DNA from: an uncultured Bacteroidota bacterium | GTDB lineage: Bacteria; CLD3; SB21 | NCBI GenBank assembly: GCA_964415295.1 | Contig: CAYPYN010000003.1 | Location: forward strand, 294,417-358,416 | Direction: 5' to 3' | Length of the DNA: 64,000 bases | Shown here: piece after piece, positions 1 through 30,344 of the stretch | Numbering within the stretch: the first letter of the stretch is position 1 | Layout of the letters: every line of letters starts with the position of its first letter | The notes under the pieces: generated by a model | What the model was told of the DNA's origin: nothing | Database searches by the model: none | What the model saw: the letters and a program-made list of their open reading frames with translations, nothing else | Program-made: the position numbers and the translations under genes

Positions 1-1169
1 CACGCGAGGGGTGTGTTATTATAACCGCTGGCGTGGCATTTCTGACATTGATCCTGAACCGTCAGATGACCGCCCGTCAAAGGGAATCGTGATGCGGCGT
101 GATCAAAAGCGGCCGGGGCCCACCCGGGATTGGTCGTGTGGCACGTCTCGCAATTCTGTGAATAGTTCCCGGAAACGTGATTGGGATCTGCGGCTTGCGT
201 GAAGTCGTTGCTGTGGCACGAGTAACATTGTTTCGAAGTATTCATGAATCCGCTGCCGTGACAGGACGAACATTGATTCCGTGCAGTATAATGGGCGCCG
301 GTCAGCGGGAAAGTCGTTACGGCATGATCAAACGATGCCGGCGACCAGCCGGGCGTTGTCGTGTGGCACTCCAGGCAATTTTTCGGATAATTGCCTGCGA
401 GATGTTTGGGATCGTTGGATTGGTCGTAATCGTTCTTATGACAATTGTAACAGTCGCCGGTCAACTTGTAATCCCCGTTCGTATGGCAAGCCGCACACGC
501 GATATGGGCGTGCGACTGGGTCAACTCAAAACCAAAAGATGCATGGTCGAGGATCCGTGCGGGGGACCAGCCCTGGGGTGTATGGCACGATTCGCATGCG
601 ATCGGGAAGTTTCGACCGGCATGGTCCGGGTTGGACGAAGTTCTGTAATCGGTCATATGGCATCCCGAGCAGGTGGTCGTCAGTCCTTTGAATTCGTTTT
701 GCTGTTGGTCTTTATGACAGCTTCGGCAAGCCGCGGTAGCATGTTTGCCCGTCAGAGGAAATCGGGTGAGATCGTGCTGGACTTTGAAATTAAATGGCTC
801 CCAGCTTTTGGAAGTATGGCACTGGTCGCATTGTTTTCCAAGCTGGCCTTTGTGGATATCATCGTGGCATTGGTAACATTGGTTTTTAGATCCGGTGAAT
901 TGAAAATTGGCATGGCAGGCCCTGCAGTCGCCGGCTTTGTGTTGTCCTTCCAACGGGAAATCGGTCTGGGTATTGTGATCAAATGCCATGTCCTTTCGGA
1001 TGCTTTTCCATTCGCCCGTCGCATGGCAGGCGTCGCAGGCGATCGATATCATACCATGCGGATTTTGCGTTTGCGCTTTTATGACCAACGTGTCCGGGCG
1101 CTCCTGGGCGCTCATAGCGGATCCTGAAAGAGCGGCCATTAAAAGCCAAGTGTAATAGCGTTTTTTCAT
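1..1169 (-). CDS. Multiheme c-type cytochrome, partial. The N-terminal 389 aa are in the window; the 3' end runs off the window start. Signal peptide MKKRYYTWLLMAALSGSAMSA. 14 CxxCH motifs.
   Basis: I translated the minus strand by hand from the ATG at 1167-1169; the frame is open to position 1. CxxCH motifs: CDACH, CRACH, CYQCH, CDQCH, CRSCH, CSGCH, CESCH, CAACH, CYNCH, CLECH, CSSCH, CYSCH, CETCH, CQKCH, with repeated FDH..FPL.G.H spacers. It is absent from the ORF track only because it is edge-truncated. The listed plus-strand ORFs 177..1127 and 281..691 are antisense shadows of it. Confidence 0.85.
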   Translation of the reverse strand, partial: MKKRYYTWLLMAALSGSAMSAQERPDTLVIKAQTQNPHGMISIACDACHATGEWKSIRKDMAFDHNTQTDFPLEGQHKAGDCRACHANFQFTGSKNQCYQCHDDIHKGQLGKQCDQCHTSKSWEPFNFKVQHDLTRFPLTGKHATAACRSCHKDQQQNEFKGLTTTCSGCHMTDYRTSSNPDHAGRNFPIACESCHTPQGWSPARILDHASFGFELTQSHAHIACAACHTNGDYKLTGDCYNCHKNDYDQSNDPKHLAGNYPKNCLECHTTTPGWSPASFDHAVTTFPLTGAHYTARNQCSSCHGSGFMNTSKQCYSCHSNDFTQAADPNHVSGNYSQNCETCHTTNPGWAPAAFDHAASRFPLTGGHLTVQDQCQKCHASGYNNTPLA

Positions 1170-1176
1170 ATTCGTA

Positions 1177-2901
1177 TTACTTTAAGTGGGCATGACAAGA
1201 TGAACACTTCGTATCTATCGGTTTGTAAACCGTCGTTACGATGCCGTTATTCAGAGTGACGCTCCGATGACACTTCACGCATTCGATCTTCTCGTGCGCC
1301 CCCGATAAAGGAAAACGCGACTGACGCGTATGGTCGAATGCCGCCGGTCTGAATCCGTTCTCGTTATGGCACCGTTCACATGGCGTGTCTCCCGACATGG
1401 TTTTAAACTGACCAAAATGAAAATCCGAATGACACGATTCACAGGCCGACGAAAGGCCTTTGTATTGGGTGTCCGAACTCTGTCCGGTGGAAGTCTTGTG
1501 ACACTTAACGCAGCCGACTTGGGCGTGTTTACCTTTCAATGGGAAGGCTGAATCTTTATTATGATCAAATAGGAGTTCATTCCAGGCATCCGTCCGATGG
1601 CATGACTCGCAGCCTGTTTTTGAGACCTTTTCTTTGAATTGGTCTTTGTGAATGTCTGTGTGGCAATCCGCGCAAGCCTTCGCCAAAAAGCGGAATACAA
1701 CGGTCGGTTCGGCGGGACGCGAATTCAGGCCGGTCCTCTTGCCGAATTCGTCTCCTGAGAGCCGATCATGGCACTGGTTGCATCCGACGGCCGCGTGAGA
1801 GCCGGTCAGTGGGAATTGTGAACCGGCGTGATCCGTGATCGAAAATATAGAAGGAGTGAAGCCGTTCGTGTTATGGCAGCGTTCACATCGGCCCTGGTCG
1901 GGTGTGGAACTAAATTGTTCGGCGTGGTTAAACTTGTGGCAATCGCGGCATTCGACGTACTTCAATCCCTTGAATTGCGCCTTTTTTTTGATGTCCGGCT
2001 GATGGCATTTTTCGCAGTTGACGGAGAGATGTTTGCCGGTCAATGGAAAGTTGGTCTTTGAGTGATCAAAGCCGCTTACTGTGACGTTTTGCCAGCCGCC
2101 GGGCACATGGCACTTTTCGCAGGTTTGACCAAATTTGTTGTTGTGCGGGTCGGTATGGCAAACGGTGCACTTATCGAATCTCATATCCGAAAGATTCATA
2201 TAATCGGGGTCGACCTGCCCGTTCGGCTTTTTTCTTGAGTCCGGAACCAAAACATGGCACTGCTCGCAGGAAGCCAATGAATGCCTTCCGGTCAAAGGGA
2301 ATCGGGTATTGCTGTGGTCAAATTTGGCTTCAACAGATCTCTTCCAGTCTTCGAAATCATGACATTCCGTACAAGGCTTTGTCATGTGGTTTCGATGTTC
2401 GTTAAAATGGCAATGGCGGCAGTCCTGACCTAATCCGAGGAATGTCCTCGATAATGAAAGTCCTTCGGCCGCCCGGTTCCGAACGGCATTGTCCTTGATG
2501 AATTCCGGTTTGTGGCAGCTTTCACACCTGGCGGTCTTGTGCTTACCTTCGAGCACGTATCCGGTTTGATCGTGCGAAAAACCGGTTTTGCCTCCTTCCC
2601 ACCTGATCATATCAAATTGACGACCTCTGTGTTCGGTGTGGCACTGAATGCATTCTTTATTTCGTACGGACGCTGAGCCGTGGAAGCCTTTATTCTGATC
2701 GATGCGGGACCGCAGCAGAGCATGGCACTCCAGGCATTTAGTCTTGTTGATCTTCTTTCCCAGATCATGGCATTGAGTGCATTGATTCATTCCTTCCAGA
2801 GAAGCGTGGGCATTGGTGAGGTCACCCGGCGAGAATTGGGCAAAAGCATTCCATGATAAAAGCAACAGCAGTCCGGTCGTATGTTTGAGAATGTGTTGCA
2901 T
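1177..2901 (-). CDS. Multiheme c-type cytochrome, 574 aa, 20 CxxCH motifs, Sec signal peptide (..WNAFA-QF).
   Basis: 20 CxxCH counted in the translation. Repeated c7-like modules F(D/S)HxxTxFPLxGxHxxxxCxxCH. Paralogous to the 589-aa MHC at 5106..6875 (near-identical N-terminus QFSPGxLTxAHASLEGxxxCTQCHDLGxKIN). Confidence 0.9.
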   Translation of the reverse strand: MQHILKHTTGLLLLLSWNAFAQFSPGDLTNAHASLEGMNQCTQCHDLGKKINKTKCLECHALLRSRIDQNKGFHGSASVRNKECIQCHTEHRGRQFDMIRWEGGKTGFSHDQTGYVLEGKHKTARCESCHKPEFIKDNAVRNRAAEGLSLSRTFLGLGQDCRHCHFNEHRNHMTKPCTECHDFEDWKRSVEAKFDHSNTRFPLTGRHSLASCEQCHVLVPDSRKKPNGQVDPDYMNLSDMRFDKCTVCHTDPHNNKFGQTCEKCHVPGGWQNVTVSGFDHSKTNFPLTGKHLSVNCEKCHQPDIKKKAQFKGLKYVECRDCHKFNHAEQFSSTPDQGRCERCHNTNGFTPSIFSITDHAGSQFPLTGSHAAVGCNQCHDRLSGDEFGKRTGLNSRPAEPTVVFRFLAKACADCHTDIHKDQFKEKVSKTGCESCHRTDAWNELLFDHNKDSAFPLKGKHAQVGCVKCHKTSTGQSSDTQYKGLSSACESCHSDFHFGQFKTMSGDTPCERCHNENGFRPAAFDHTRQSRFPLSGAHEKIECVKCHRSVTLNNGIVTTVYKPIDTKCSSCHAHLK

Positions 2902-2975
2902 CAGAAGCAGGTATTGAAGAATTCGTTCTATTTGAACCTTCGTTTTCGGATCAAGGAAGATTTTGTCTATTTCTA

Positions 2976-4280
2976 TTAGCGCAAGTAATAGTTCATTCTT
3001 ATGAAAACGGACGTATGGGGATCGGTGGCATTACCGATTTCCTCCGATGCCGTCAGAGCTCCGAAAAAATCTCTGGTGATCCTGTAACTCACATCGGCAC
3101 TGATGATCGACAGAAGATGGTTGCGGGCCGGCGTTTTGATATTCCACTGATACGTGTTCAGATTATAGGTCATCGTCGCATCGAGTCTGTTCTGCAGAAA
3201 ATCCCGGTTGAACCACAGCGCCGTCTGTATGTTTCTTAGCCATTGATTGGATGTGTAAGAGGCACTGATGCCGGTATTGAGCCGCACCCAAAAATAATTT
3301 CTATAACCGGTCCGAAGATCTGCGTAAATCAGATCGCCGTTACCGAACCGTTTTTTGAGAGTTGAAGAGATATCCAACATGCCGATCCGCGGATTATAGT
3401 AGGCGCGGTAATTGGTTGTAAGCGATACGTTCTTTTCGGTCGAAGAGTAAAAATATTTATCGGACGCATTTATCGTGTCCGTTCGTGTAAGAAAATGGGT
3501 TGTCCGGTTACGGTAGTCAAAGGTTGTACGGAAATTGAGTGATTTGTTGAAACGGTAATACACCGACGACTGTGAATAACCGATGAGGCTTTCATTGACA
3601 ATATATTGGGTTCGGTGATACAGGCGGAGGTTAGTAACTGGCTTATAGTCGCCGTACAAGTAGGCTTTCGTCAATGATGTGGACTCATACTTTTCGGCCG
3701 TAAATCCGAGGCCGGCCGACCAGAGGTTGTGCAAATGAATAAGACTGCCGCCGTAGTTATATCCGCGGCCCGTCGGATCGTTGCGGTAAAAATCGTTGAT
3801 CGTTCCGCCGAAAGCCGATAGATCGAACAGGTTGCCCAGCCGTATATTTTCTGCGGATACACCATTGATTGGGTAGGCGTCCACTACAGGCATGAGCGGG
3901 ATAATACGTCCAGCTTTGACTTGTCTGAAATTGTCGCCGTACGCGGCGTAAAGCTGCTTTACGATATAACGGTTTTGAAATCTTTGTCCTTCGGTTATAC
4001 CTTTCGTTCCGGTAAAGGTGTTTTTTTCATAATAGTCTATCTTGAACTGGTATTTGACCGCGCCAGAATTCGCATCAAATATCCGGTAATTCAGCATCGC
4101 GTAGTTGCTCAACGCGTTCAGGGACGACGAAGCGCCGGTTTGCGAATAGTAATTCCAAGTGGTTGATAAACGGCCGACAAGGTTCTTTCCGACGGGCATC
4201 GAAGGATTTTGCGCACCCACCGTCGCGTCCGCCAGGATCAGTAGAAATATCGTTTTCATGAGTATATCAAGATATTTCAT
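2976..4280 (-). CDS. Outer-membrane beta-barrel protein, putative porin partner of the cytochromes (~434 aa from the Met at 4278-4280; the ORF track extends it to 4331).
   Basis: Signal peptide MKYLDILMKTIFLLILADATVGA-QN. Rich in Y/N/T/G/S, with alternating hydrophobic/polar short strands typical of beta-barrels. Its start codon overlaps the stop of the upstream MHC-9 (ATGA at 4278-4282). It sits between multiheme cytochromes. Confidence 0.65.
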   Translation of the reverse strand: MKYLDILMKTIFLLILADATVGAQNPSMPVGKNLVGRLSTTWNYYSQTGASSSLNALSNYAMLNYRIFDANSGAVKYQFKIDYYEKNTFTGTKGITEGQRFQNRYIVKQLYAAYGDNFRQVKAGRIIPLMPVVDAYPINGVSAENIRLGNLFDLSAFGGTINDFYRNDPTGRGYNYGGSLIHLHNLWSAGLGFTAEKYESTSLTKAYLYGDYKPVTNLRLYHRTQYIVNESLIGYSQSSVYYRFNKSLNFRTTFDYRNRTTHFLTRTDTINASDKYFYSSTEKNVSLTTNYRAYYNPRIGMLDISSTLKKRFGNGDLIYADLRTGYRNYFWVRLNTGISASYTSNQWLRNIQTALWFNRDFLQNRLDATMTYNLNTYQWNIKTPARNHLLSIISADVSYRITRDFFGALTASEEIGNATDPHTSVFIRMNYYLR

Positions 4281-5044
4281 CAGTCGTCTCCTCCCTCGCC
4301 CTTGTGATCGAAGTCGTGGCATTCCCGGCATGTGTAAGTGGAGTAGTCGGGCGCATTCCGGTGGCAGGTTTCGCAGCTGCGGCGGTGATGACCGGTCAGC
4401 GAGAACCAGGCGTCAAGGTGCGGATAATCGTTCCAGCCGTTCATGTTGTGGCAGGCGAGGCAATCGCCGAGAGCTTCCCATTGCGCATGCTGAGGAGGAG
4501 CTCCGATGGCCCGGTGGCAGTCGGAACATTGATTCACATTGGGCATCTTGAATGTTATCAGATTACGGTGGCAATCCGCGCAATCAAGTCCGCGATGTCC
4601 TCCGATCATGATAAAGGTCTCACCGGTGTGATTGAAGGTCGAAGGCGCCCAGGCTTCTTCATTGTGACACCGTTCGCAATCGGGTCCGAGTTCGCCCTGG
4701 TGGGGCTCTTTGTGGCAGACGGCGCACTCGCGTATGGAGGTGTTGAACTTTCCGCCGGCGTGGCAGCTTTGGCAATTGGTTCGCTCATGGGCGCCGCGCA
4801 ATGGGAATCCCGTTTTCGTGTGGTCGTAATCTACATGCGGCTTTATGACTTTCCAGGAATCGGTGGTATGACAAACCTCGCATGGGAATTCAAACCGCTT
4901 GTGCGGAATTTTTACAAACGGCGTATCCGTTACCGCAAAATGTAATTCCGGCGATGCATTCACGTTCCAATCCAAATTGGCAGGGGCGGTGCCGAACCAA
5001 AGAGTCATACCGACGATCAGGCCGGCGAGAATGTTTTCACTCAT
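4280..5044 (-). CDS. Multiheme c-type cytochrome, 254 aa, 9 CxxCH motifs, with an N-terminal hydrophobic segment (signal peptide or membrane anchor).
   Basis: CEVCH, CQSCH, CAVCH, CERCH, CADCH, CSDCH, CLACH, CETCH, CRECH. Same module order as the partial MHC at 1..1169 (CxxCH..W..FDHxKTxFPLxGxH..CxxCHA..F..CxxCHxxxHxGxLGxxCxxCH). Confidence 0.9.
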   Translation of the reverse strand: MSENILAGLIVGMTLWFGTAPANLDWNVNASPELHFAVTDTPFVKIPHKRFEFPCEVCHTTDSWKVIKPHVDYDHTKTGFPLRGAHERTNCQSCHAGGKFNTSIRECAVCHKEPHQGELGPDCERCHNEEAWAPSTFNHTGETFIMIGGHRGLDCADCHRNLITFKMPNVNQCSDCHRAIGAPPQHAQWEALGDCLACHNMNGWNDYPHLDAWFSLTGHHRRSCETCHRNAPDYSTYTCRECHDFDHKGEGGDD

Positions 5045-5105
5045 AGTGTGTCTTATAGATGATTTGCATAAAAAGCTGTCTTAATGGAAAATCTGAACTT
5101 TGTTT

Positions 5106-6875
5106 CTATTTTAGCTCAAAAACGCCTTCGTGTTTATCCGGATGACAGGAGGCGCAATCCGACGCGACCGGTTTGTATAACGTGATGAGCGAGTCCGATT
5201 CTATTTTTGTGAGAACATGACACTTGGCACAGTCTACTTTCCGATGGGCGCCCGTCAAAGCAAAGACCGATTGTGTGTTGTGATCAAACAAGGAAGGTTT
5301 GAATTTCTCGGCATTGTGGCACCTCTCGCAATACGTGAGACGCCCGGACTCGACCGAATCGGTCTTTTGGGCAAACTGACCTTCGTGCACATCCTTGTGG
5401 CAGCTTTCGCAGAAGTTGGAGACCGGTTTGTATAATACCCATTTGGCCGGCGTACGGTCGTCCTGCGATTTATGGCATTTCTCGCACTTCGCCTCCTTAT
5501 GTTTCCCCAAAAGCGGGAATTCGGAGTCCTTGTCGTGATCAAATACCAAGTCCTTCCAACCTGTCACTTTATGGCAGATGTCGCAGTCGTATTTTTTGAG
5601 CTTTTCTGCAAATTGTCCACGGTGAATATCCGTGTGGCAAGAACCGCATTTGCGATCGGTGAATTTGAATAGCATCGCCGACGAATCTCCGGGTGCGGCT
5701 AAACCGGTTCGGGTTTTGAACACCGCCGGTTCCAGCTTGACATGGCATTTATTGCAGGTCGTTTTAATATGCGCGCCGGCCAGCACGTATTTCGACTCTG
5801 TGTTATGGCGTTCAACAGTGAAAAGCGAAGGAACGAATCCGCTCTCGTTATGGCATGCTTCGCATTTTCCTTTGTCAGCGCGGGAAGAAAACTGTCCGGC
5901 GTGAGTATCCTTGTGGCAATCCGTGCATTTGGAGAATGACATATTCTTGTAGGCCGCCGGTTTCTTCGGATCCGGCTGATGGCATTTGTCGCAGGCCACA
6001 TGCCGATGCTCTCCGATCAGCGGGTAACGCGTCTTATTGTGGTCAAAACCCTCCATCACGACGTGAGTCCACCCTAAAGCGTCGTGGCACTTGACGCAGT
6101 TCCGGCCAAATTTGTTTTGGTGCGGATCCTTATGGCAGGGCGTGCAATTGGAGAAATCCAGCTTCTTGTAATTCGCAAAATTCTGGTCCGTACTGCCGTC
6201 GGGTTTTTTCCGTACGTCTTCGGTCAGGGCGTGGCATTGGACGCATTCGACTTTTTGGTGCCGTCCGATAAGCGGATACTTTGTTTTACTGTGATCAAAT
6301 CTCGTCTTCACCGACTCTTTCCAGTTGTCAAAGTCATGGCATTGGCCGCACTTAGGATCCAGTTGTCCCCGGTGCTCATCAAAGTGACACGTCGCGCATT
6401 GCTGGGACAAACCCAGATGCGTATTTTTGATAGAGACAGTGACGCCGGACTGCAGTCGGACAGTAGGGGAAACAATTTGTTCGGGTTTATGGCATTTTTC
6501 GCACCGATCGGTCTTATGTTTACCTTCCAGTTTGTACCCTGTGAGACTATGATCAAAGGCCGACTTACCGCCCTCCCATCGGATCATTTTGAATCCGCGG
6601 CCCTTGTGTTCGAAATGGCAGGCGATGCACTCTTTAGAGCGAACGGAGGAGGAAGCGTGGTATCCTTTTCCGGCATCGACGCGCTCTTTGAGTTCCACAT
6701 GGCATGAAAGGCACTTCTGTCCGTTGATCTTCTGGCCGAGGTCATGGCATTGTGTGCAGTTGTCGGTACCTTCCAGAGATGCGTGGGCCTGAGTCAATTC
6801 TCCGGGTGAGAATTGAGCACGGGCGCTCGTTCCCGACAAAACAGACAAAGCCAAAGCGATCAGAACGCGTTTCAT
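5106..6875 (-). CDS. Multiheme c-type cytochrome, 589 aa, 20 CxxCH motifs, signal peptide (..SARA-QF).
   Basis: 20 CxxCH counted. Paralog of 1177..2901. Confidence 0.9.
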   Translation of the reverse strand: MKRVLIALALSVLSGTSARAQFSPGELTQAHASLEGTDNCTQCHDLGQKINGQKCLSCHVELKERVDAGKGYHASSSVRSKECIACHFEHKGRGFKMIRWEGGKSAFDHSLTGYKLEGKHKTDRCEKCHKPEQIVSPTVRLQSGVTVSIKNTHLGLSQQCATCHFDEHRGQLDPKCGQCHDFDNWKESVKTRFDHSKTKYPLIGRHQKVECVQCHALTEDVRKKPDGSTDQNFANYKKLDFSNCTPCHKDPHQNKFGRNCVKCHDALGWTHVVMEGFDHNKTRYPLIGEHRHVACDKCHQPDPKKPAAYKNMSFSKCTDCHKDTHAGQFSSRADKGKCEACHNESGFVPSLFTVERHNTESKYVLAGAHIKTTCNKCHVKLEPAVFKTRTGLAAPGDSSAMLFKFTDRKCGSCHTDIHRGQFAEKLKKYDCDICHKVTGWKDLVFDHDKDSEFPLLGKHKEAKCEKCHKSQDDRTPAKWVLYKPVSNFCESCHKDVHEGQFAQKTDSVESGRLTYCERCHNAEKFKPSLFDHNTQSVFALTGAHRKVDCAKCHVLTKIESDSLITLYKPVASDCASCHPDKHEGVFELK

Positions 6876-7483
6876 TTTACGTTTCCTAACATGGATCTGG
6901 CTTTGGAGGCGAACTCAGAATTGGGCTGCAGTTCTATCGTTCTGGAAAAATAGGTTCTCGCGGCATCGGTCTTTCCGATATTGGCATGAATCACGCCCAG
7001 GTTGAAAGTGGCCGTTATGTTGCCTTTATCACCGGCAAGAATCGAGTTAAGTTCGGCGATAGCCTTTTCGGGATTTCCGGAATTGAAAAAGCACACCGCG
7101 TAGTCATTGCGAACGTTGTTGTTGCTCGGATCGATGGAGAGGGCTTTGCCGTAGGGTTCGATCGCGTCTTTAAAGTTACCGTTATCATAAAGCAAGTTGC
7201 CAAGCTGAATAAGATGTTCCAGGTCGTTCGGGTTTTTTTGTAACTGTTCCTTGAGCATTTTGATATTCATCAGCGCGTCGTGATTGGACGGAACGGATTT
7301 TCCTGTTATCGATGAAGCTTCGGAGGAACCGGTTCCTCCAGGCATCGGGACATTCATCGACGGTTCATCGTGATGGTGGGTATCTATCCTTTCAGTTGGT
7401 TCGTCCTTATAAAGGATGAGAATAGCCACGACCATAAAGACTCCGCCAAAAACAAGCGGGTAAAGATTCTTCTTGGAATTCAT
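6872..7483 (-). CDS. Membrane-anchored TPR-repeat protein (CcmI/NrfG-like TPR; possible cytochrome maturation or complex-assembly factor).
   Basis: One N-terminal TM helix (LVFGGVFMVVAILILY), then TPR-like repeats (GNLLYDNGNFKDAIEPYGKALSIDP..). Embedded in the cytochrome operon; overlaps the downstream gene by 4 nt. Confidence 0.55.
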   Translation of the reverse strand: MNSKKNLYPLVFGGVFMVVAILILYKDEPTERIDTHHHDEPSMNVPMPGGTGSSEASSITGKSVPSNHDALMNIKMLKEQLQKNPNDLEHLIQLGNLLYDNGNFKDAIEPYGKALSIDPSNNNVRNDYAVCFFNSGNPEKAIAELNSILAGDKGNITATFNLGVIHANIGKTDAARTYFSRTIELQPNSEFASKARSMLGNVK

Positions 7484-7496
7484 AAATCTCCTGCGG

Positions 7497-8375
7497 TTAA
7501 AAGATCCAGGTGTATCCGAATAAGAAAGCTACAACGATATGGGCGATCAAGATCACACCCATAATGATCGTAAAAGGCATGTGAATCACGTGCCAGTGCC
7601 GGAAAAGCTTTTGCACGGTCACGAGGGTCTGAATTTGACGCTGGATTCGCGACCGGTCCAGAAACAAATGTCTGACGGCATACAGATGTTCGTGGGCCAC
7701 GTTTTGCAGTTCGAGGTGTTTTATGGCACGGTGGATCTGGAAATAGCGTTTGATATCGTACCACATGAGCTTGGGCAATGTGGTAAAGAAGGAAGCCCGT
7801 TCATCAGAAACAAATGCAAATGTCAGGGCATCAAAGCTCTGAATTTGTTCTTTTGCCAATCCGTACTCCGTCGACAGCGTTTGAGTTATCAGATTGAGAT
7901 GTTTCTGGAGTTCCGATGCGGTCAGATCCTTTCCCGAAAGACTTTTGGGAATAAGGAGGTAGATATACCGGCCCAGAATGCCGCTCGCCACGACGCAGAC
8001 CATGCTCCAGAAGCTGACGGCCACGATGCCGCCGAATTTGAAGGCCGAATGGTAGAGTATGAGAGCCGGTCCCAAGAGGCAGAGAAATATGTGGAACTCC
8101 AGAACGTGTTTGATCTGCCCGAAGCCGGCAAGCAGGCTCCAGCGCTTGCGCAATGAATAAAGAGCCACGCCAATGATCATCATGAAAGTTCCGATGAATC
8201 CCATACCGTGACCCCAGAAACCGACCGGGCTCAGGTTTTCGTGCATGGGATGAAGATTGCGTTCTTCGACAGGTGTGGCGTAATAGTCCGAACCGTAATA
8301 ACCGATCAAAACGACGGTGCCCAATCCGACGACCGTCATGGTCCATATGAATATGCGGTGTGCAATTTTGTTCAT
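7497..8375 (-). CDS. His-rich 4-TM integral membrane protein, 292 aa. Putative di-heme b-type quinol dehydrogenase / membrane electron carrier. Paralog of 9272..9823.
   Basis: Predicted TM helices with invariant His (HEF, ILYHS, HWHVIHMP...IAHIV). Clear alignment to the 183-aa protein (AYSLRK, HEF, L(I/V)xH, SG(I/L)xG(R/K)Y(I/L)). No family recognised by eye. Confidence 0.6.
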   Translation of the reverse strand: MNKIAHRIFIWTMTVVGLGTVVLIGYYGSDYYATPVEERNLHPMHENLSPVGFWGHGMGFIGTFMMIIGVALYSLRKRWSLLAGFGQIKHVLEFHIFLCLLGPALILYHSAFKFGGIVAVSFWSMVCVVASGILGRYIYLLIPKSLSGKDLTASELQKHLNLITQTLSTEYGLAKEQIQSFDALTFAFVSDERASFFTTLPKLMWYDIKRYFQIHRAIKHLELQNVAHEHLYAVRHLFLDRSRIQRQIQTLVTVQKLFRHWHVIHMPFTIIMGVILIAHIVVAFLFGYTWIF

Positions 8376-8402
8376 GTGTTCTTTTGCGTTTGTCCAAATA
8401 TA

Positions 8403-9281
8403 TTAGTCGTCATTTTCCTTATGTTTAGAGTCGTGTCTGTCCCGGCCGTCTTTCTTGACTTCGTGTTTGTTTCCGCTGCGGTGACAACGCACGCAGTTCT
8501 GGTAGTCGCTGATACCTTCCTCCTCATGTTCCTCGCGGATCTTGGCGGGTGAGTGCTCGTGGCACCCGTAACAGGAATAGGAACGGAAATCATCTTTGGT
8601 ATGGCATGTGGCGCATTCCGTCCGATGGTCTTTGTCAAATCGGAAGTACCGGTCGTGATCATACGTTGCCGGTTTCCATGCTTCGGTAGTGTGGCAATGT
8701 CCGCACGCCGTGTCTATAAGCCGGTGCAGCGCATCCTCCGGCTTGTTATGACAAGCGGTACACGCCATCTGCCGGGACGAATCCAATACGGCATGATCAA
8801 AACGCGCCGGTTTCCAAACCGTAATGTCATGGCAGTGGACGCAGGATGCAGAAATGACCCGGTGAATCCGGTCACTAGGCCGGCTGTGGCACTGCTCGCA
8901 TCGGCTTTTCAGAGAGTCCGGTAAGACGTCGTGGGAAAAAGTACGGCCGGCATAATGGCGCCCAAGATGGTCCAAGTGGCATGCAGCGCATGGCTGTACT
9001 TCCAATTGTCTATGAAATGCCGCCGGCTTTCCAGTTGAGTCCATAGGTGTACCGTCGACTTTGAATAGACCGATCTGCTCGGGTCGATGGCATGTTACGC
9101 ATTTGTCCCGCGTAATTCCGCGAAATGCGGAATGGCAGGCAAAACAATCGTTATCTATTTGTTGATGCGCCAAGATCAGATCGCCCGGATTAAGCATGGG
9201 TTCCGGATAATACAGCATGATAGCGGTATAACCAACGCCTGCCAGAATAGTCATGAGGAGCATCAGCCATTTCATCGCCAT
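8403..9281 (-). CDS. Multiheme c-type cytochrome, ~293-320 aa, 10 CxxCH motifs, N-terminal TM anchor. Start probably at the Met at 9281 or 9275.
   Basis: CFACH, CVTCH, CAACH, CEQCH, CVHCH, CTACH, CGHCH, CATCH, CYGCH, CVRCH. Hydrophobic N-terminus WLMLLMTILAGVGYTAIMLYY. Confidence 0.85.
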   Translation of the reverse strand: MAMKWLMLLMTILAGVGYTAIMLYYPEPMLNPGDLILAHQQIDNDCFACHSAFRGITRDKCVTCHRPEQIGLFKVDGTPMDSTGKPAAFHRQLEVQPCAACHLDHLGRHYAGRTFSHDVLPDSLKSRCEQCHSRPSDRIHRVISASCVHCHDITVWKPARFDHAVLDSSRQMACTACHNKPEDALHRLIDTACGHCHTTEAWKPATYDHDRYFRFDKDHRTECATCHTKDDFRSYSCYGCHEHSPAKIREEHEEEGISDYQNCVRCHRSGNKHEVKKDGRDRHDSKHKENDD

Positions 9282-9823
9282 CCCCAAAATATAAAAATCG
9301 TCAGTATGTGAAGAAATGCCAGCAAACAAAAAAGCAAGGTAATGGGAAGATGCACCAACCTCCATTTTTTCATTAACTCAAAAGTGACGGCATTCAGAAA
9401 CACGCTTTTTCCCGTTTCCTGGGTCCCTGTGGATTCAAGTATCGTCTGAGAGCGCTTGAGCAGATATTTCCCCGTCAGGCCGCTTACAACAGCCATCACC
9501 ATGGCCGCCAGACCATACCAAGGAAGCCAGGCGTTGAAATGAATACCGCCATGGACCAGGATCATCAGGGAACCCGACCACGCGAGAAATTCATGCCAAC
9601 CCAGCAGGGTTTTATGAGAGCCTTTTGAGATGAAGTTGTACTTGCGAAGAGAATAAGCAAAGGATGCGAGAATGAATAGCGCTCCGGATATTCCAAAATA
9701 GCGTCCTATCCAGGCATAACCTAAAACATGAAGAATCCAATCAACCAGAATGGCGCCTCCGATCAATGCACCAAATAGGATCGTAAGAGGCAGGATATCT
9801 TTGAATAATAGAGTATGCTTCAT
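9272..9823 (-). CDS. His-rich 4-TM integral membrane protein, 183 aa; paralog of 7497..8375.
   Basis: Four hydrophobic helices with conserved His (ILHVLGY, GWHEFLAW, LVHGGIHF, LVHLP..FLHIL). Confidence 0.6.
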   Translation of the reverse strand: MKHTLLFKDILPLTILFGALIGGAILVDWILHVLGYAWIGRYFGISGALFILASFAYSLRKYNFISKGSHKTLLGWHEFLAWSGSLMILVHGGIHFNAWLPWYGLAAMVMAVVSGLTGKYLLKRSQTILESTGTQETGKSVFLNAVTFELMKKWRLVHLPITLLFCLLAFLHILTIFIFWGWR

Positions 9824-9835
9824 TTTAACTACTCG

Positions 9836-11158
9836 TTAGAACACTCTTTCTTTCTGCATGAATTCTATTCCGATCTTTTTAAGGAAGGGTGTCGGTAATT
9901 CGCCGCCCGCAAAAACAAACACAAAATCGTTTTCGATCTCCTTGTCGCCATCCGTTGTTTGGATGATTACAGACTTTTCTTTGATTTCCTTGGTAGTCGA
10001 ATTATAAAAGATCTTGATCAGGCCGTTGGCTTCGGCCTCTTTGATGCGATCCTGATTTTTTTGTTTGGCTTTTGGAAAGGCATCTCCCGTGTTAACCAGA
10101 GAAACGACTGTGCCCTTTTGTTTGGAAAGGCCGACGGCCGCTTCCACGCCGGCGTCACCGGCTCCGACGACCAGGAGCTTGCCGTTCTCATATTTGCCGG
10201 CATCGATTAACTGGTAAGTGACTTTTGAGGTATTTTCACCGGGCACGTTTAGTTTTCGTGGAGTACCGCGCCTTCCTAATGCGAGTACGAGATTATTGGC
10301 AAGAAATTCGGCTCCGGAGGCTGTTTGTATGCGGAGGTGTCCGTTTTCCCGAGTAACGTTTTCGAGTTTCTGATTGCATTGAACGCTCAACCCGGTCTTT
10401 ATGATGATATGATTCCACAATTCCAATAATTCTTCCTTACTCAATTCCTTCTTACGCATCCATCCGTATTTCGGGATTTCAACCGGCACCGTCATCACCA
10501 GTTTCTGGCGGGGATAACTTAGTATAGCTCCTCCGGGCGTATCTTCTTTTTCGATCAGGATGTAATTGAGTTCATTCTCGATCGCTCTGAGTCCGGCGCT
10601 GAGTCCGGCGGCTCCTGCACCTACGATGGCGACGTCGTATACGCCCGCGGTTCGTTTCGAAGCCTGGTATCGGGCCTTTTCCGAGATCGCATCGATCACA
10701 TGTTTCCCCTGGAAGATCGCATTGCGGAGAAGGGCCATACCGCCGAGTTCGCCGATCAGATAGACATTCGGGATATTGGATTCATACGTCTCATCAAGCA
10801 GAGGTATTTCAGCGACCGATTTGGTGGGATTCAGCACGATCTTGATTCCGGAGACCGGACAGGCTTCGGCGCAAATGCCGTGGCCAACGCATTTGGCCGG
10901 CAGCACAAGTTCTGCAACGCCGTCGATCAGTCCGAGAGCGCCTTCCGGGCAAGCGATCACACAGGATGAACAACCAATGCACAAAGACTGGTCCACACGC
11001 GGATGCTGCGCAACCGGTTTGTCTTTGCCCAAGGCTATGGCCTGATCGCGCTTCTTTTGCTGTTTCTTACTGCTCCGGCGCACGATGACGACATACGGAA
11101 CAAAAATGATTAATAGCAGTCCAACGGACAGCAGCAGCGTCCACAGCGATTCGTTCAT
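9836..11158 (-). CDS. Membrane-anchored 2x[4Fe-4S] ferredoxin domain fused to a TrxR-like FAD/NAD(P)H oxidoreductase (FNR-like flavoprotein).
   Basis: N-terminal TM helix. CIGCSSCVIACP and CVGHGICAEACP cluster motifs. GxGxxG dinucleotide folds VAIVGAGAAGLSAG and LLVVGAGDAGVEAA. No CxxC redox disulfide. Confidence 0.8.
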   Translation of the reverse strand: MNESLWTLLLSVGLLLIIFVPYVVIVRRSSKKQQKKRDQAIALGKDKPVAQHPRVDQSLCIGCSSCVIACPEGALGLIDGVAELVLPAKCVGHGICAEACPVSGIKIVLNPTKSVAEIPLLDETYESNIPNVYLIGELGGMALLRNAIFQGKHVIDAISEKARYQASKRTAGVYDVAIVGAGAAGLSAGLRAIENELNYILIEKEDTPGGAILSYPRQKLVMTVPVEIPKYGWMRKKELSKEELLELWNHIIIKTGLSVQCNQKLENVTRENGHLRIQTASGAEFLANNLVLALGRRGTPRKLNVPGENTSKVTYQLIDAGKYENGKLLVVGAGDAGVEAAVGLSKQKGTVVSLVNTGDAFPKAKQKNQDRIKEAEANGLIKIFYNSTTKEIKEKSVIIQTTDGDKEIENDFVFVFAGGELPTPFLKKIGIEFMQKERVF

Positions 11159-11254
11159 AATTTCACCTCAGTAAAATATACGCCGTATCACAGAGGGAAT
11201 CATGACGAAAGTCATTTATTAAGAAAATTTAATATAGGGAAAGAGGGGATGGCG

Positions 11255-11677
11255 CTATTCCGGCTTGTAGGTCTTTATCATGACAAGATGGATCGTCACG
11301 GCGACGGCAATAGCGACGAGCAGCGCACCGACGTACCAGGGCATAGAGGTAGAAAAAATGGAAATCGTGATCGTAACCCACAAAACAAAAATCGAAGTGA
11401 TCTTGACTGAAAGAGGAGTTCCGCGGTTCTCTTTGTAGTCTTTGATTAAACGGCCGAAGTAGCGGTTGTGCAGTAACCAATGGTAGAATCGGGGCGAACT
11501 GTGCGCGTAACATGTCGCCGCCAGAAGCAGAAAGACCGTGGTGGGCATAAGCGGAAGGATAGCTCCGATAATTCCCAGTCCGACGAAGATGTGCCCCGAG
11601 AAAATGAGAAAGGTCCGGCTCAGCCGGCTCATTTCTTTATCTTCCGTTTTCTTATCTTCTTTGGAATAGTTCGTCAT
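11255..11677 (-). CDS. YbaN/DUF454 family inner-membrane protein.
   Basis: Small 2-TM protein with GHIFVGLGIIGAILPLMPTTVFLLLAA, typical of DUF454. Confidence 0.65.
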   Translation of the reverse strand: MTNYSKEDKKTEDKEMSRLSRTFLIFSGHIFVGLGIIGAILPLMPTTVFLLLAATCYAHSSPRFYHWLLHNRYFGRLIKDYKENRGTPLSVKITSIFVLWVTITISIFSTSMPWYVGALLVAIAVAVTIHLVMIKTYKPE

Positions 11678-23655: not shown

Positions 23656-24519
23656 TTGCTAATGGCTAGAATCAAGATGAGAATCAACAGCCGGGAAGAT
23701 CAATCGATTGAACGGTATCTGGAAGAGATCAATAAAGTTCCTTTGCTCAAGCCGGATGAAGAGATCGAATTGGCCAAACGGATCAAGAAGAACGACAAAC
23801 AGGCTTTGAAGCAATTGGTCGAAGCCAATCTCCGGTTTGTTGTCAGCGTAGCCAAGGATTATCAGAATCAGGGCTTACCGCTGAGCGATCTGATCAACGA
23901 AGGCAATCTGGGGCTTATGAAAGCGGCGGAACGTTTCGACGAGACCCGCGGTTTCAAATTCATTTCCTACGCCGTATGGTGGATCCGTCAATCCATTTTG
24001 CAGGCCATCGCGGAGCATTCGCGTATCGTGCGCCTTCCCCTCAACCGCGTCGGGATGCTCAATAAGATCGGCAAAGCGTACAACGAACTCGAGCAGGAAT
24101 TCGAACGCGAACCCAGCACGGAAGAAATTGCGACGGAACTTGAGATCAAAGATTACGACGTATCCGACGCGCTGAGAATTTCCAAACGTCATTTGTCACT
24201 GGACGCTCCTTTGCAGGAAGATGAAAAGAGCGTGCTGATGGATACCGTACCGGATAAAGTGAACCCTCTGCCGGACGATATGCTGATGAATGAGTCTTTG
24301 CGCCAGGATATCGAGAATACGCTGTCTTCGCTCAGCGATCGTGAGGCGAAGATCATCAAACTGTATTTCGGTCTTGGTATTGAGCGTTCCCTGACCCTGG
24401 AAGAGATCGGGGAGGAATTCAAACTGACACGCGAACGCGTCCGTCAGATCAAGGAAAAAGCGATCAACCGCTTACGTCACAAATCGCGGAGCAAGTCGCT
24501 TCGCTCGTATCTCGGTTAA
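23656..24519 (+). CDS. rpoD: Primary-type sigma-70 factor, 287 aa (regions 1.2-4). The start may be the Met at 23662.
   Basis: Regions 2.x ([26 protein letters not shown]) and 4.2 ([24 protein letters not shown]). A short primary sigma is typical of the FCB group. Confidence 0.85.
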
Positions 24520-28039: not shown

Positions 28040-28672
28040 TTGTCTTTTATGGAGAAATCATTAGTTGATTATTTCAACGAAGGCGGATTGTTCATGTGGC
28101 CGATTCTTTTCTGCCAAATCATCGGGTTGGCCATTTGTATCGAACGTTTTGTCACGTTGACACGTTCCGGCCTTAATACAAGAAAATTCTTAGTTAAGAT
28201 CAAACAAGCCCTGGACGAAGGCGGTGTACAGCGTGCTATCGAAGTTTGCGCCAACCAGCGCGGTTCCGTAGCTTCGATCTTTCATGCCGGGCTTCTGCGC
28301 GCTCACAAAGGCGTGGATCAGGTGGAAAAAGCGATCGTTAATGCCGGCGCTATCGAAATGGCGTTTTTGGAACGCGGTATGGTTTGGATCTCCTTCTTTA
28401 TTGCCATGGCCCCGATGCTTGGATTCACCGGCACGGTGCAGGGTATGATCCAGTCCTTTGAAGCTATCGCCAAAGCTAACGACATTTCTCCGACCATCGT
28501 TGCCAGCGGTATCTCCGTGGCCTTGTTGACCACGATCTTCGGTCTGGTTGTCGCTATGTTGCTTCAGTTCTTCTACAATTATTTTACCGCCAAGATCAAC
28601 CGTCTGGTGGTTGACATGGAAGAAGCTTCCGCTGAATTGGTCGAAACCATCGTCGAGATTGAACACAAATAA
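28040..28672 (+). CDS. exbB: MotA/TolQ/ExbB proton channel.
   Basis: 3-TM pattern and conserved ExbB C-terminal helices. Confidence 0.8.
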   Translation: MSFMEKSLVDYFNEGGLFMWPILFCQIIGLAICIERFVTLTRSGLNTRKFLVKIKQALDEGGVQRAIEVCANQRGSVASIFHAGLLRAHKGVDQVEKAIVNAGAIEMAFLERGMVWISFFIAMAPMLGFTGTVQGMIQSFEAIAKANDISPTIVASGISVALLTTIFGLVVAMLLQFFYNYFTAKINRLVVDMEEASAELVETIVEIEHK

Positions 28673-28687
28673 TTAAGGAAATATCGA

Positions 28688-29089
28688 ATGTTAGTAGAAA
28701 AAAGGAAAAAGAGTTCGGCGGATATCCCGACCGGTTCGTTGGCCGATATGGCCTTCCTTTTGCTCATATTCTTTATTGTGATTACGACGGTGGGAACGGA
28801 CAAGGGGATCGACCTTGTATTGCCTCCCGAAGGCGATGTGAAGGAAATTCCAAAGACCAATATCATGAATATCCTGCTAAACGATAACGGTGATATTCTG
28901 ATCGACGAAGAGCCCCGTTTTATGAACCAGATAAAGGATATCGTAAAAAACCGGATCATCAAAAACGATAAGATCATCGTTTCGGTTAAAACGACCCGCC
29001 GGACACCGTATAAGATCTTTGTAGCGGTCCTTGATCAGCTCAAACAGGCTGAAGCTAAGAAGATCTCGATAGCGGAACCGGACAAATAA
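28688..29089 (+). CDS. exbD: ExbD/TolR biopolymer transport protein.
   Basis: Single TM, then a periplasmic domain; ~133 aa. Confidence 0.75.
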   Translation: MLVEKRKKSSADIPTGSLADMAFLLLIFFIVITTVGTDKGIDLVLPPEGDVKEIPKTNIMNILLNDNGDILIDEEPRFMNQIKDIVKNRIIKNDKIIVSVKTTRRTPYKIFVAVLDQLKQAEAKKISIAEPDK

Positions 29090-29110
29090 AAGCAGAAAGT
29101 CGGAGATGAT

Positions 29111-29533
29111 ATGAAATTTAGCAGGAAAAAGAGCGCTGATGCGATCATCCCAACAGCGTCGATGTCAGATATCGTGTTCACTTTGACACTGTTCTTCATG
29201 GTGTCAACGGTGATCAAGAAATTCAACGGTTTGCCGGTTGATGTACCGGATGCCTACCAGATCGAAAAGCTGCAGACCAAAACCCATACTTCCTATATAT
29301 GGATCGACGAAGGTCAGAATATCTCGTTTGACGATTATCCGATCTCATCTATGGAAGAGATCTATACTCTGGCCCGTCAGAAAATAGAGAAAGATGTCCA
29401 GTTGCTTATATTCATGCGCGTGGATAAGAATATGGCCATGGGAGTATTGGTGGATGTGCAGCAGGAGTTGAGAAAGGCCGGAGCGTTGCGTGTGTATTAC
29501 GCCACGAAGACCAAGGCGTCTCCTAATTATTGA
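29111..29533 (+). CDS. exbD: ExbD/TolR biopolymer transport protein, second copy.
   Basis: Same architecture; 140 aa. Confidence 0.75.
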   Translation: MKFSRKKSADAIIPTASMSDIVFTLTLFFMVSTVIKKFNGLPVDVPDAYQIEKLQTKTHTSYIWIDEGQNISFDDYPISSMEEIYTLARQKIEKDVQLLIFMRVDKNMAMGVLVDVQQELRKAGALRVYYATKTKASPNY

Positions 29534-29565
29534 TAGCATGACTCTATATGCAGAAAGGGTAACAT

Positions 29566-30207
29566 ATGAAACTTTATGAATTGCGTATGCAGCATGCGAA
29601 GCTATTTGAGGCCTCTATCATAATTTCCATGCTGTTGGTAACACTGATCCTCAGATTCTATACGTTCGGTGAGTCTGAGAACCAGATCGCAAAAGCCGAT
29701 ATTCAGTTCGAAGTATCCAAGGTTGATCTGACCAAGCAGATCAAGCGTGCACCGCCGCCAAACCGGCCGGCCGTACCGATCGCTTCGGAGACCGAAACCT
29801 TGTTGGGCGATGAGACCATCGACGATACGGATGTGGATCTGATGGAGATTCCGCCGCCGCCGCCGCCACCGGCTAAGAAAGACGAAGGTGGTGGTGAAGC
29901 AGAGGTCTTTGTTGCGTACGACACACCTCCGGATCTTAAGGGAGGATTTGATTTTATTCGTAAGAATCTGAAGTATCCCGATATGGCCCGTCAGGCCGGT
30001 ATCGAGGGTAAAGCCGTGGTCAGTTGCGTCGTCGATGAGAATGGGAACGTAGTGAGGGCCGAAGTGATCAAAGAAGATGGTAATGTAGGATTTGGTCAGG
30101 CGGCAATCGATGTGATCATGAAAGCCAAATTTAACCCGGCACGGCAGCGCGACAAAGCCGTAAAAGTCCGGATATCAGTACCCGTGGTATTCAAACTAAA
30201 GGGCTGA
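29566..30207 (+). CDS. tonB: Energy transducer TonB (Pro-rich linker plus C-terminal TonB domain).
   Basis: PPPPPPPAKK linker; C-terminal YPDMARQAGIEGKAVV...FNPAR motif. Confidence 0.8.
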   Translation: MKLYELRMQHAKLFEASIIISMLLVTLILRFYTFGESENQIAKADIQFEVSKVDLTKQIKRAPPPNRPAVPIASETETLLGDETIDDTDVDLMEIPPPPPPPAKKDEGGGEAEVFVAYDTPPDLKGGFDFIRKNLKYPDMARQAGIEGKAVVSCVVDENGNVVRAEVIKEDGNVGFGQAAIDVIMKAKFNPARQRDKAVKVRISVPVVFKLKG

Positions 30208-30223
30208 TCCAGTAGAGATTAAA

Positions 30224-30262
30224 CAAAAAATCCCGTTCGAATAATCGAACGGGATTTTTTGT
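30224..30262. terminator. Bidirectional rho-independent terminator (after tonB on + and after tRNA-Met on -).
   Basis: 11-bp perfect stem atcccgttcga/tcgaacgggat, flanked by aaaaaa upstream and tttttt downstream. Confidence 0.75.
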
Positions 30263-30271
30263 TTGTAGGCG

Positions 30272-30344
30272 TGGGCCATCAGGGATTTGAACCCCGGACC
30301 AAAGGATTATGAGTCCTCTGCTCTAACCGCTGAGCTAATGGCCC
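30272..30344 (-). tRNA. tRNA-Met (anticodon CAT). Elongator-type; could be tRNA-Ile2 if lysidinylated.
   Basis: Folded by hand into a 73-nt cloverleaf: GGGCCAT acceptor, GCTC/GAGC D-stem, anticodon loop CTCATAA, T-loop GGTTCAAATCC. G1-C72 pair, and no GGG/CCC in the anticodon stem, so not an initiator. Confidence 0.85.

Follow-up and report, generated by a model that had tools for sequence, protein, structure and literature searches.

The first 11,158 positions of the DNA analysed here, a 64,000-nucleotide stretch (hereafter the window) of contig CAYPYN010000003.1 from an uncultured Bacteroidota bacterium (assembly GCA_964415295.1; positions 294,417 to 358,416), carry an operon-like, conserved and uncharacterised porin-cytochrome-type gene set that, judging from sequence and structure models, probably specifies a composite trans-envelope conduit for outward electron flow, common in Bacteroidota-related bacteria. 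ORF (open reading frame) listing and translation placed ten consecutive minus-strand ORFs in 1-11158, all where a preliminary description of this DNA had put them, except that the decahaem cytochrome most likely starts at 9275, not 9365, and the barrel at 4280, not 4331; the genes assigned to this interval are present, but the last one runs past the window edge at base 1. The junctions, in gene order, are 12, -4, 27, 13, -4, 61, -1, 74 and 7 nt, with two ATGA (4-nt) overlaps and one TGATG (1-nt) overlap, in agreement with the gaps below 75 bp and several overlaps described earlier. Five products are Cytochrome_C7/c3 repeat proteins in Pfam/NCBIfam scans, and their CxxCH motifs total 73 in the window part of the cluster (14 + 20 + 9 + 20 + 10), exactly the minimum of c-type haems that had been claimed; the products of 2976-4280, 7497-8375 and 9272-9823 matched no Pfam or NCBIfam family. 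The number of cysteines is exactly twice the number of haem motifs in each of the five cytochromes, and a motif scan found no CX3CH, CX4CH or CxxCK in them. Spare histidines at least equal the haems in each protein, so that bis-His ligation is possible throughout, as expected for c7/c3-type haems.

Synteny with related loci (given below as L numbers) indicates that three parts make up the cluster: a six-gene unit, an optional cytochrome b/decahaem pair and a second outer-membrane module. The six genes encode an iron-sulfur flavoprotein (FdFNR), a predicted cytochrome b (TM4b), a TPR protein, a 20-haem cytochrome (MHC20), a nine-haem cytochrome (MHC9) and a beta-barrel (barrel1), and the order FdFNR-TM4b-TPR-MHC20-MHC9-barrel1 is conserved in the four species-representative genomes that carry barrel1, which are metagenome-assembled genomes, some labelled Bacteroidota. 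The unit stands alone between unrelated flanks in L010, L090 and L091, and L089 also carries it in self-contained form, with the same upstream genes as the window (ltaE-deoC-FBPase-DUF454) and a cluster that ends at barrel1. In L089 barrel1 is followed by radical-SAM and baeRF genes, and the same two genes follow a second barrel (barrel2) in L003, which marks the second module (a further 20-haem cytochrome, MHC20b, a giant cytochrome and barrel2) as an insertion. The core trans-envelope reading of the preliminary description is thus retained, and gene order is conserved across divergent genomes as a synteny check of that reading asked, but the single linear ten-gene path is replaced by a composite.

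The inner-membrane pair of FdFNR and TM4b, together with the 20-haem cytochrome, defines a large Bacteroidota family. Homologues of TM4b fall into more than 2000 protein clusters, all unannotated and without a Pfam domain, and those with a named organism come from Bacteroidota, Ignavibacteriales, Saprospiraceae or Saccharicrinis. A metagenome scan with a TM4b profile gave at least 567 confirmed homologues among 600 pattern-matching stretches. For co-occurrence, 80 metagenome loci were retained and only those with enough flank were counted: FdFNR lies beside TM4b in 20 of 23 loci, a 20-haem cytochrome in 24 of 26 and a barrel2 homologue in 9 of 11. The usual sister layout, TM4b-(TPR)-FdFNR-MHC20 followed by a variable cytochrome (19-61 haems) and a barrel2 of about 535 aa, is common in Bacteroidota, including the cultured Saccharicrinis sp. 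GN24d3. The conduit layout had been claimed to be undescribed, and a full-text search of the open-access literature returned no description of it. A 2024 survey reported "undescribed" giant cytochromes in Bacteroidota and Saprospiraceae and assigned them no pathway (PMC11495043).

Sequence features point to FdFNR (9836..11158, minus strand; 440 aa) as the proposed cytoplasmic electron input. It is a membrane-anchored iron-sulfur flavoprotein, as had been recognised before, composed of a transmembrane (TM) helix, a 2x[4Fe-4S] ferredoxin domain and a two-Rossmann FAD/NAD(P)H domain, with Pfam matches to Pyr_redox_3 (5.6e-39) and to several Fer4 models (dicluster). The N-terminal TM helix (residues 8-26) is followed by a basic stretch (RRSSKKQQKKRDQ), which places the iron-sulfur and FAD domains in the cytoplasm. 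The best NCBIfam scores were YpdA with 146 bits (cutoff 340) and TrxR with 81 bits (cutoff 343), both far below threshold, and by these scores FdFNR is a relative of the TrxR/YpdA fold class and a member of neither equivalog. A single cysteine lies outside the Fer4 domain, hence no CxxC is found there, and the lack of a CxxC disulfide speaks for an enzyme of the NAD(P)H:FeS type rather than a disulfide reductase. Assignment as a YpdA-type bacillithiol-disulfide reductase is unlikely at a score so far below the cutoff; the residue in the first GxGxxG motif at what we take to be the position of the YpdA active-site cysteine is alanine.

The gene for TM4b (7497..8375, minus strand) encodes a 292-aa membrane protein with five TM helices and two histidine pairs, H95/H109 in TM3 and H265/H279 in TM5, which are invariant in alignments of 20 and 68 homologues; the members of each pair are exactly 14 residues apart, and H262 is also invariant. 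The same 14-residue spacing holds two stacked b-haems in bc1 cytochrome b and in the NOX/ferric-reductase family, and because TM4b has two invariant pairs with this spacing it is a predicted dihaem cytochrome b. A conserved helical insert of about 110 aa separates TM4 from TM5. The basic loops fit the positive-inside rule, predicting that one histidine of each pair lies near each membrane face and that the insert is cytoplasmic. TM4b gave no Pfam match (Ferric_reduct and Ni_hydr_CYTB included) and no NarI-type family match in Pfam/NCBIfam, a Foldseek search with its model gave no significant match, and a sequence-profile search of the PDB with this cytochrome b returned noise only.

At the inner membrane the design recalls NOX/FRE or Hmc/Tmc, and TM4b was compared with these and other transmembrane electron carriers. 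Its five helices distinguish it from NOX, FRE, STEAP and MsrQ and from b561, Dcytb and CybB, which have six or four, so that it falls outside the NOX/ferric-reductase family (six-TM, PF01794), and it lacks the PF01292 (Ni_hydr_CYTB) match of the b561, FdnI and HydC families, whose fold is a four-helix dihaem bundle. Its partner is a separate, anchored flavoprotein of the TrxR/YpdA class with 2x[4Fe-4S], where NOX has an FNR-fold domain, and the proposed acceptor is a multihaem cytochrome chain, not the O2, Fe3+ or periplasmic enzyme of the NOX/FRE systems. The succession of periplasmic multihaem cytochrome c, membrane cytochrome b and cytoplasmic iron-sulfur protein resembles the Desulfovibrio Hmc, Tmc and Qrc complexes, a design that crosses the inner membrane without necessarily involving free quinone. 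Unlike in Hmc and Tmc, the cytoplasmic partner is a flavoprotein-ferredoxin fusion, not an HdrD/CCG-type protein, and barrels are present; the cytochromes reach only 17-39 bits with the HmcA and QrcA equivalog models, whose cutoffs are 180-400, and the cluster encodes no CCG or molybdopterin proteins. The physiological direction of Hmc and Tmc is inward, from periplasmic H2 to cytoplasmic sulfate reduction.

Two accounts of electron entry into the conduit were weighed against these features. One is a quinone-independent respiratory shunt in this and many other Bacteroidota-related bacteria, a "split NOX-like" arrangement in which electrons would pass from FdFNR to the five-helix dihaem cytochrome b, on to the 20-haem cytochrome and then to one of two new porin-cytochrome modules; we put it forward tentatively, as a reading that is possible and falls short of probable. 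Under it, the 20-haem cytochrome may bridge the periplasm, with its length taken from haem count only, and in one module a single-polypeptide "nanowire" of 19-61 haems is proposed to thread the barrel of about 535 aa. The other, which we regard as rather unlikely, is a quinol-dependent conduit in which TM4b, the paralogous TM4a with its decahaem partner MHC10, or both, would act as menaquinol dehydrogenases like CbcL, CbcBA, CymA and ImcH, leaving FdFNR an accessory role as alternative input, redox sensor or quinone reductase partner. To our knowledge every characterised Gram-negative pathway of extracellular electron transfer (EET) begins at the quinol pool, which counts in favour of quinol entry, as do the nearest structural neighbours, CybB and FdnI, which are quinone-reactive dihaem cytochromes b (the TM4b Foldseek matches being not significant). 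Against it stand the persistence of FdFNR, with its own membrane anchor, beside TM4b over wide divergence in the counts given above, the conserved cytoplasmic domain of TM4b, which would be superfluous in a plain quinol oxidase, and the missing Ni_hydr_CYTB and NarI-type matches.

TM4a (9272..9823, minus strand; 183 aa) is a short paralogue of TM4b with five TM helices and without the cytoplasmic insert. Both of its histidine pairs (WHEF...VHGG and VHLP...FLH) show the 14-residue spacing, an hhalign comparison with the profile of the TM4b family aligned the histidines at a probability of 89.8% (E 1.8e-6), and BLASTP against TM4b found 34% identity over TM2-TM4. These two proteins had been described as a paralogous pair of His-rich, four-TM, quinol-oxidase-like proteins; the paralogy stands, whereas both have five hydrophobic helices and are better called predicted dihaem cytochromes b. 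TM4a is present in the window and in L004 and absent from L002, L005 and L089-L091. Its presence co-varies with that of MHC10 (8403..9275, minus strand), a TM-anchored decahaem cytochrome c with 10 CxxCH motifs, a hydrophobic N-terminal segment and Cytochrom_CIII, C7 and c3_2 matches, whose start is most likely M31 (9275), giving an ATGA overlap with the TM4a stop. TM4a and MHC10, found as a pair only in the window and L004, form an optional b + c inner-membrane pair that repeats the "dihaem b + membrane-anchored multihaem c" design of Geobacter CbcL/CbcBA, a likeness that also favours quinol entry. The pair differs from CbcL/CbcBA in having no detectable homology to the HydC/FdnI (Ni_hydr_CYTB) b-domain and in being optional.

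The conserved cytochrome of the whole cluster family is MHC20a (5106..6875, minus strand), a 589-aa, 20-haem periplasmic cytochrome c with a signal peptide (...ARA/QFSPGEL) and 20 CxxCH motifs. Its Pfam matches are Cytochrome_C7 (2.9e-23) and the MtrC/MtrF II-IV domain (57.5 bits), the latter a likeness of the 20-haem proteins to MtrC/MtrF, and orthologues with exactly 20 haems occur in L002-L007, L010, L025, L062, L068 and L076. From its sequence, MHC20a is proposed to be the periplasmic wire. The gene before it encodes the TPR protein (6872..7483, minus strand; 203 aa), anchored by a TM segment at residues 7-25 and coupled to MHC20a by an ATGA overlap, so that the TM-TPR protein described earlier was found again. 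It scores 49.5 bits against PF23914 TPR_CcmH_CycH (cutoff 42), which places it in this family at the domain level, and it resembles the TPR domain of the cytochrome c biogenesis proteins CcmH/CycH (CcmI) and NrfG, suggesting that it may be an apocytochrome chaperone or complex-assembly factor. The TPR gene is retained in many related clusters, including L069, which has no nearby cytochromes.

A chain of this kind could in principle belong to a periplasmic catalytic reductase (for nitrite, hydroxylamine or sulfite) or to an Hmc/Tmc-type sulfate-respiration complex, and weak NCBIfam similarity of the cytochromes to HmcA, QrcA and DmsE-type proteins points that way. Those scores are 17-48 bits, against curated cutoffs of 180-400. 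Catalytic signatures are absent from the cytochromes in motif and Pfam/NCBIfam scans, all haems being CxxCH haems in c7/c3 repeats with no CxxCK or other atypical motif, no HAO, Nrf, octahaem or CCG-domain proteins and no Mo/W subunits were found, and the cluster includes outer-membrane barrels. Taken together, the regular haem motifs and the equivalog scores far below cutoff effectively refute a catalytic reductase, to which we attach next to no probability.

The outer-membrane end of the six-gene unit is barrel1 (2976..4280, minus strand), a 434-aa protein with a signal peptide whose AlphaFold2 model, as a check on barrel architecture and strand number, is an all-beta barrel of 22 strands with a predicted local distance difference test score (pLDDT) of 78.5; homologues align from the start at 4280. 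The barrel1 family comprises 15 clusters among 5.8 billion proteins, all annotated hypothetical protein. A profile hidden Markov model of the family found 8 matches in 1.84 billion representatives, most from its own small family and none from a wider porin family, in a search in which OmbB itself was not compared directly. No MtrB/PioB-family score reached its cutoff, as had been predicted, and the claim that the proteins belong to none of the named Mtr/Omb families agrees with MtrB/PioB and DmsE-family scores that are all below cutoff. By its model barrel1 is thus a true outer-membrane barrel, and it has no detectable sequence link to wider porin families, those of the MtrB/PioB type included. 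Wherever flank suffices, barrel1 is preceded by MHC9, MHC20, TPR, TM4b and FdFNR, with differing genes beyond, and a generic porin beside unrelated genes is ruled out by this conserved neighbourhood.

Directly upstream lies MHC9 (4280..5044, minus strand; 254 aa), a nine-haem cytochrome c with an N-terminal hydrophobic leader and 9 CxxCH motifs, whose stop overlaps the barrel1 start by 1 nt (TGATG). The same adjacency always holds in L002-L005, L010 and L089-L091, and by analogy MHC9 is proposed to be the barrel-inserted cytochrome, in the position of MtrA. A cytochrome gene directly upstream of, and coupled to, a barrel gene is also the arrangement of MtrCAB, MtoAB and PioAB, and the size of barrel1 would in principle allow it to enclose a narrow haem wire, as in MtrCAB. 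The proteins themselves differ: MtrB and PioB have about 650-700 aa (26 strands in solved MtrB), against 434 aa and 22 strands in barrel1, which lies outside their family, and MHC9 has no match to MtrA/DmsE (TIGR03508), a model with which the other cytochromes reach 28-48 bits (cutoff 192). The three-layer logic and the c7/c3-repeat cytochromes are those of the Geobacter porin-cytochrome (Pcc) systems (OmbB-OmaB-OmcB; ExtABCD), whose porins are predicted to have 18-22 strands (PMC4245776), a range that includes the 22 of barrel1. Ignavibacteria were already known to carry Pcc-like clusters (PMC7399161), and Geobacter-type Pcc has also been reported in Ignavibacterium album and Melioribacter roseus. 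The I. album Pcc, found by OmbB/OmaB homology, has a periplasmic cytochrome of 400 aa and 14 haems (PMC4245776), unlike the 254 aa and 9 haems of MHC9, and is a different system. The cluster also departs from Pcc in lacking an OmcB-like lipoprotein cytochrome and in containing a flavoprotein, a cytochrome b, a TPR protein and a 20-haem protein.

The minimal unit resembles MtoAB and PioAB in another respect, in that its six genes include no separate outer cytochrome. This resemblance, shared with some Pcc clusters (PMC4245776), favours inward electron uptake, in which cytoplasmic acceptors would be reduced with electrons drawn, as through MtoAB/PioAB, from cathodes, partner cells or extracellular Fe(II) or Fe(0), and multihaem chains are intrinsically bidirectional. 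On thermodynamic grounds, delivery to NAD(P)+ (-320 mV) would be uphill and against the membrane potential, requiring energy coupling that the cluster does not encode, and no Cyc2-like or autotrophy genes were found in the window. We therefore consider uptake highly improbable, outward flow being favoured by the redox span and the membrane potential.

The second outer-membrane module begins with MHC20b (1177..2901, minus strand; 574 aa), a 20-haem cytochrome c with a signal peptide (...AFA/QFSPGDL) and 20 CxxCH motifs, which is a paralogue of MHC20a at about 51% identity (reciprocal tblastn relationships). It is followed by the giant repeat cytochrome c (1..1169, minus strand), of which the window holds the N-terminal 389 aa with 14 CxxCH motifs, from a start at 1169 (MKKRYY..) to the cut at the window edge. 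Its orthologues are 71-74% identical. In L003, whose proteins are 65-76% identical to those of the window, barrel1 is followed by the second 20-haem cytochrome, a 1197-aa cytochrome (7782-11375; 44 CxxCH + 1 CX3CH) and, at a 4-nt overlap, a 562-aa protein; the giant cytochrome of L002 has 900 aa and 32 haems. The giant cytochromes are built from 75-aa trihaem units, and in L003 the gene contains 225-bp tandem DNA repeats that are about 80% identical and are a likely source of assembly errors. Among relatives (L002, L003, L006, L007, L022, L025, L062, L068 and L076) the terminal cytochrome has 19-61 haems, a range that suggests length change by repeat expansion and contraction. Tandem trihaem c7-like units, with Cytochrome_C7 as top Pfam match, recall the nanowire cytochromes GSU1996 and GSU0592; the giant cytochrome is far longer than the dodecahaem GSU1996, scores 23 bits against the TIGR04257 cutoff of 40, and differs from that family in its 75-aa unit and in the coupling of its gene to a dedicated barrel gene of about 535-560 aa.

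That barrel, barrel2, is represented by the 562-aa protein of L003, a putative barrel by its signal peptide, its C-terminus (...ELSYKF) and its family; it is 23% identical (E 3e-26) to barrel2 of Saccharicrinis (L006), and barrel2 has no curated family in Pfam/NCBIfam. BLASTP showed no relation between barrel1 and barrel2, so that they were rejected as paralogues. From the synteny, the cluster should reach barrel2 just beyond base 1, and the giant cytochrome, previously regarded as the large outer partner of the 2976-4280 barrel, most likely pairs with this second barrel instead. In several clusters of the barrel2 type a gene for a predicted lipoprotein of about 240-270 aa (in Saccharicrinis, ..LLIASCGRNK) follows the barrel gene (L006:15605-16330, L022:13761-14567, L036 and L039). 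This lipoprotein has no Pfam family, is missing in the lineage of the window and may supply that variant with a further component at the outer membrane.

So many haems could also serve for redox buffering or defence in the periplasm or at the cell surface, by storing electrons as a "capacitor", by reducing toxic metals or reactive oxygen species, or by assimilatory reduction of ferric iron in the manner of FRE, Dcytb and STEAP. Structural analogues closest to TM4b include a superoxide oxidase, CybB, as well as Dcytb and the NOX family among ferric reductases; aerobic activated-sludge Saprospiraceae harbour related clusters, and their giant cytochromes have been suggested to act as capacitors (PMC11495043); the cytochromes of the cluster carry no detectable surface-export signal. 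If electrons stayed in the periplasm, the translational coupling of dedicated outer-membrane barrels to cytochromes would be difficult to account for, and at least 73 haems would be a heavy cost for assimilation alone, so that buffering or defence appears improbable.

The outward conduit can be laid out as a path whose steps are all inferred from sequence, predicted structure and synteny, none of them biochemical. NAD(P)H would be oxidised at the cytoplasmic face by FdFNR, docked on the insert of TM4b, with electrons passing to FAD and the two [4Fe-4S] clusters and then across the inner membrane by way of a stacked pair of b-haems, for which the four invariant histidines of TM4b would be the ligands. 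MHC20a, with its c7-repeat haems, would carry them through the periplasm, and from this 20-haem wire they would reach either the nine-haem cytochrome inside barrel1 or the giant cytochrome with barrel2. The same operon would provide a second route, from MHC20b to the giant cytochrome (32-45 haems in relatives) and a second barrel past the window, and TM4a with MHC10 may open another entry at the inner membrane, perhaps from quinol, as in CbcBA. As for its role, largely fermentative hosts would probably use the conduit to unload reducing equivalents onto extracellular Fe(III)/Mn(IV), humics, electrodes or partner cells; the shunt would serve such fermenters without itself conserving energy.

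Several points, in addition to the purely computational nature of this path, weigh against it. A main weakness is that haem b binding by TM4b is predicted from sequence, and since dihaem cytochromes b of the CybB/FdnI type are usually quinone enzymes, quinol entry via TM4b is possible by analogy. The specificity of FdFNR for NADH or NADPH is not readable from its sequence. No lipobox, type IX secretion system C-terminal domain or other recognisable surface-export signal was found in any cytochrome: in the five window proteins no lipobox cysteine follows the signal peptide, and all cysteines sit in CxxCH motifs. Exposure of the cytochromes at the cell surface is therefore hypothetical, the giant cytochrome could be periplasmic, and barrel2 is known from relatives and not from the window itself. 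Two inner-membrane gene sets, TM4b-TPR-FdFNR (L069:1361-4225) and TM4b-FdFNR (L029:2108-4298), have no multihaem cytochrome within 5-8 kb; the inner-membrane module may serve other acceptors there, or the cytochrome genes may lie in another part of the genome.

Upstream of the cluster, the 96-nt AT-rich intergenic region at 11159..11254 (minus strand), 5' of the first gene, is by position a likely promoter region. A sigma-70 consensus scan found 18 sites against 15.7 expected, with a consensus that does not cover Bacteroidota-type promoters, and as the promoter and terminator counts equal those of shuffled sequence they have no bearing on operon boundaries. The gene beyond, at 11255-11677 (minus strand), 96 nt upstream of the cluster, encodes a DUF454 membrane protein and has a 4-nt overlap with the FBPase gene; as no relatives but the closest (L002, L089) keep it there, it is probably outside the electron-transfer system. 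In two relatives the cluster is followed by the radical-SAM and baeRF_family10 genes and then by a gene whose product joins a mono-haem cytochrome (Cytochrome_CBB3 domain) to DUF5777 (L089:13170-14405, L003:15454-15948).

Outside the cluster the window carries ordinary housekeeping genes of the chromosome, including DnaB, a sigma-70 factor, an ExbB/ExbD/TonB set and tRNAs, a content that agrees with an organism of the FCB group, as had been proposed. The sigma factor (23662-24519, plus strand; 285 aa) has regions 1.2, 2, 3 and 4 and lacks region 1.1, a length that we take to be typical of a Bacteroidota primary sigma factor. Within 28049-30344, the ExbB-ExbD-ExbD-TonB set on the plus strand is immediately followed by a tRNA-Met gene (30271-30344, minus strand). 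Also found were a 961-aa TMEM260-like protein O-mannosyltransferase homologue with C-terminal TPRs (33985-36870, minus strand), a 926-aa UPF0182 membrane protein (42669-45449, plus strand; family-model match 940 bits), a 708-aa fusion of a CHASE2 sensor domain with an adenylate/guanylate cyclase domain (52004-54130, plus strand) and a secreted-looking 624-aa ORF (61637-63511, plus strand) with the signal peptide MKKFFWVMCLSVIWTADAFSQ and no Pfam family at E<=1e-5.

As far as we know, detailed work on EET has been confined almost entirely to Shewanella and Geobacter, in which a quinol dehydrogenase stands at the head of every pathway. Sediments, sludge, anode biofilms and iron-rich springs harbour abundant Bacteroidota and Ignavibacteria, and the cluster and its relatives offer a candidate route that is complete from the cytoplasm to the outer membrane and draws on unannotated families, with a putative family of dihaem cytochromes b, two barrel families and a conserved 20-haem cytochrome as its new elements. 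Tools such as FeGenie could take up these signature genes for a fresh assessment of which organisms exchange electrons with minerals, and the hypothesis can be tested in a cultured carrier, Saccharicrinis sp. GN24d3. Should entry prove to be fed by NAD(P)H and independent of quinones, it would be the first at the inner membrane for Gram-negative EET to bypass the quinol pool, would change the bioenergetics of EET in fermenters and would provide a compact module for bioelectrochemical engineering. It would also explain Fe(III) reduction and anode colonisation by fermentative Bacteroidota and Ignavibacteria.

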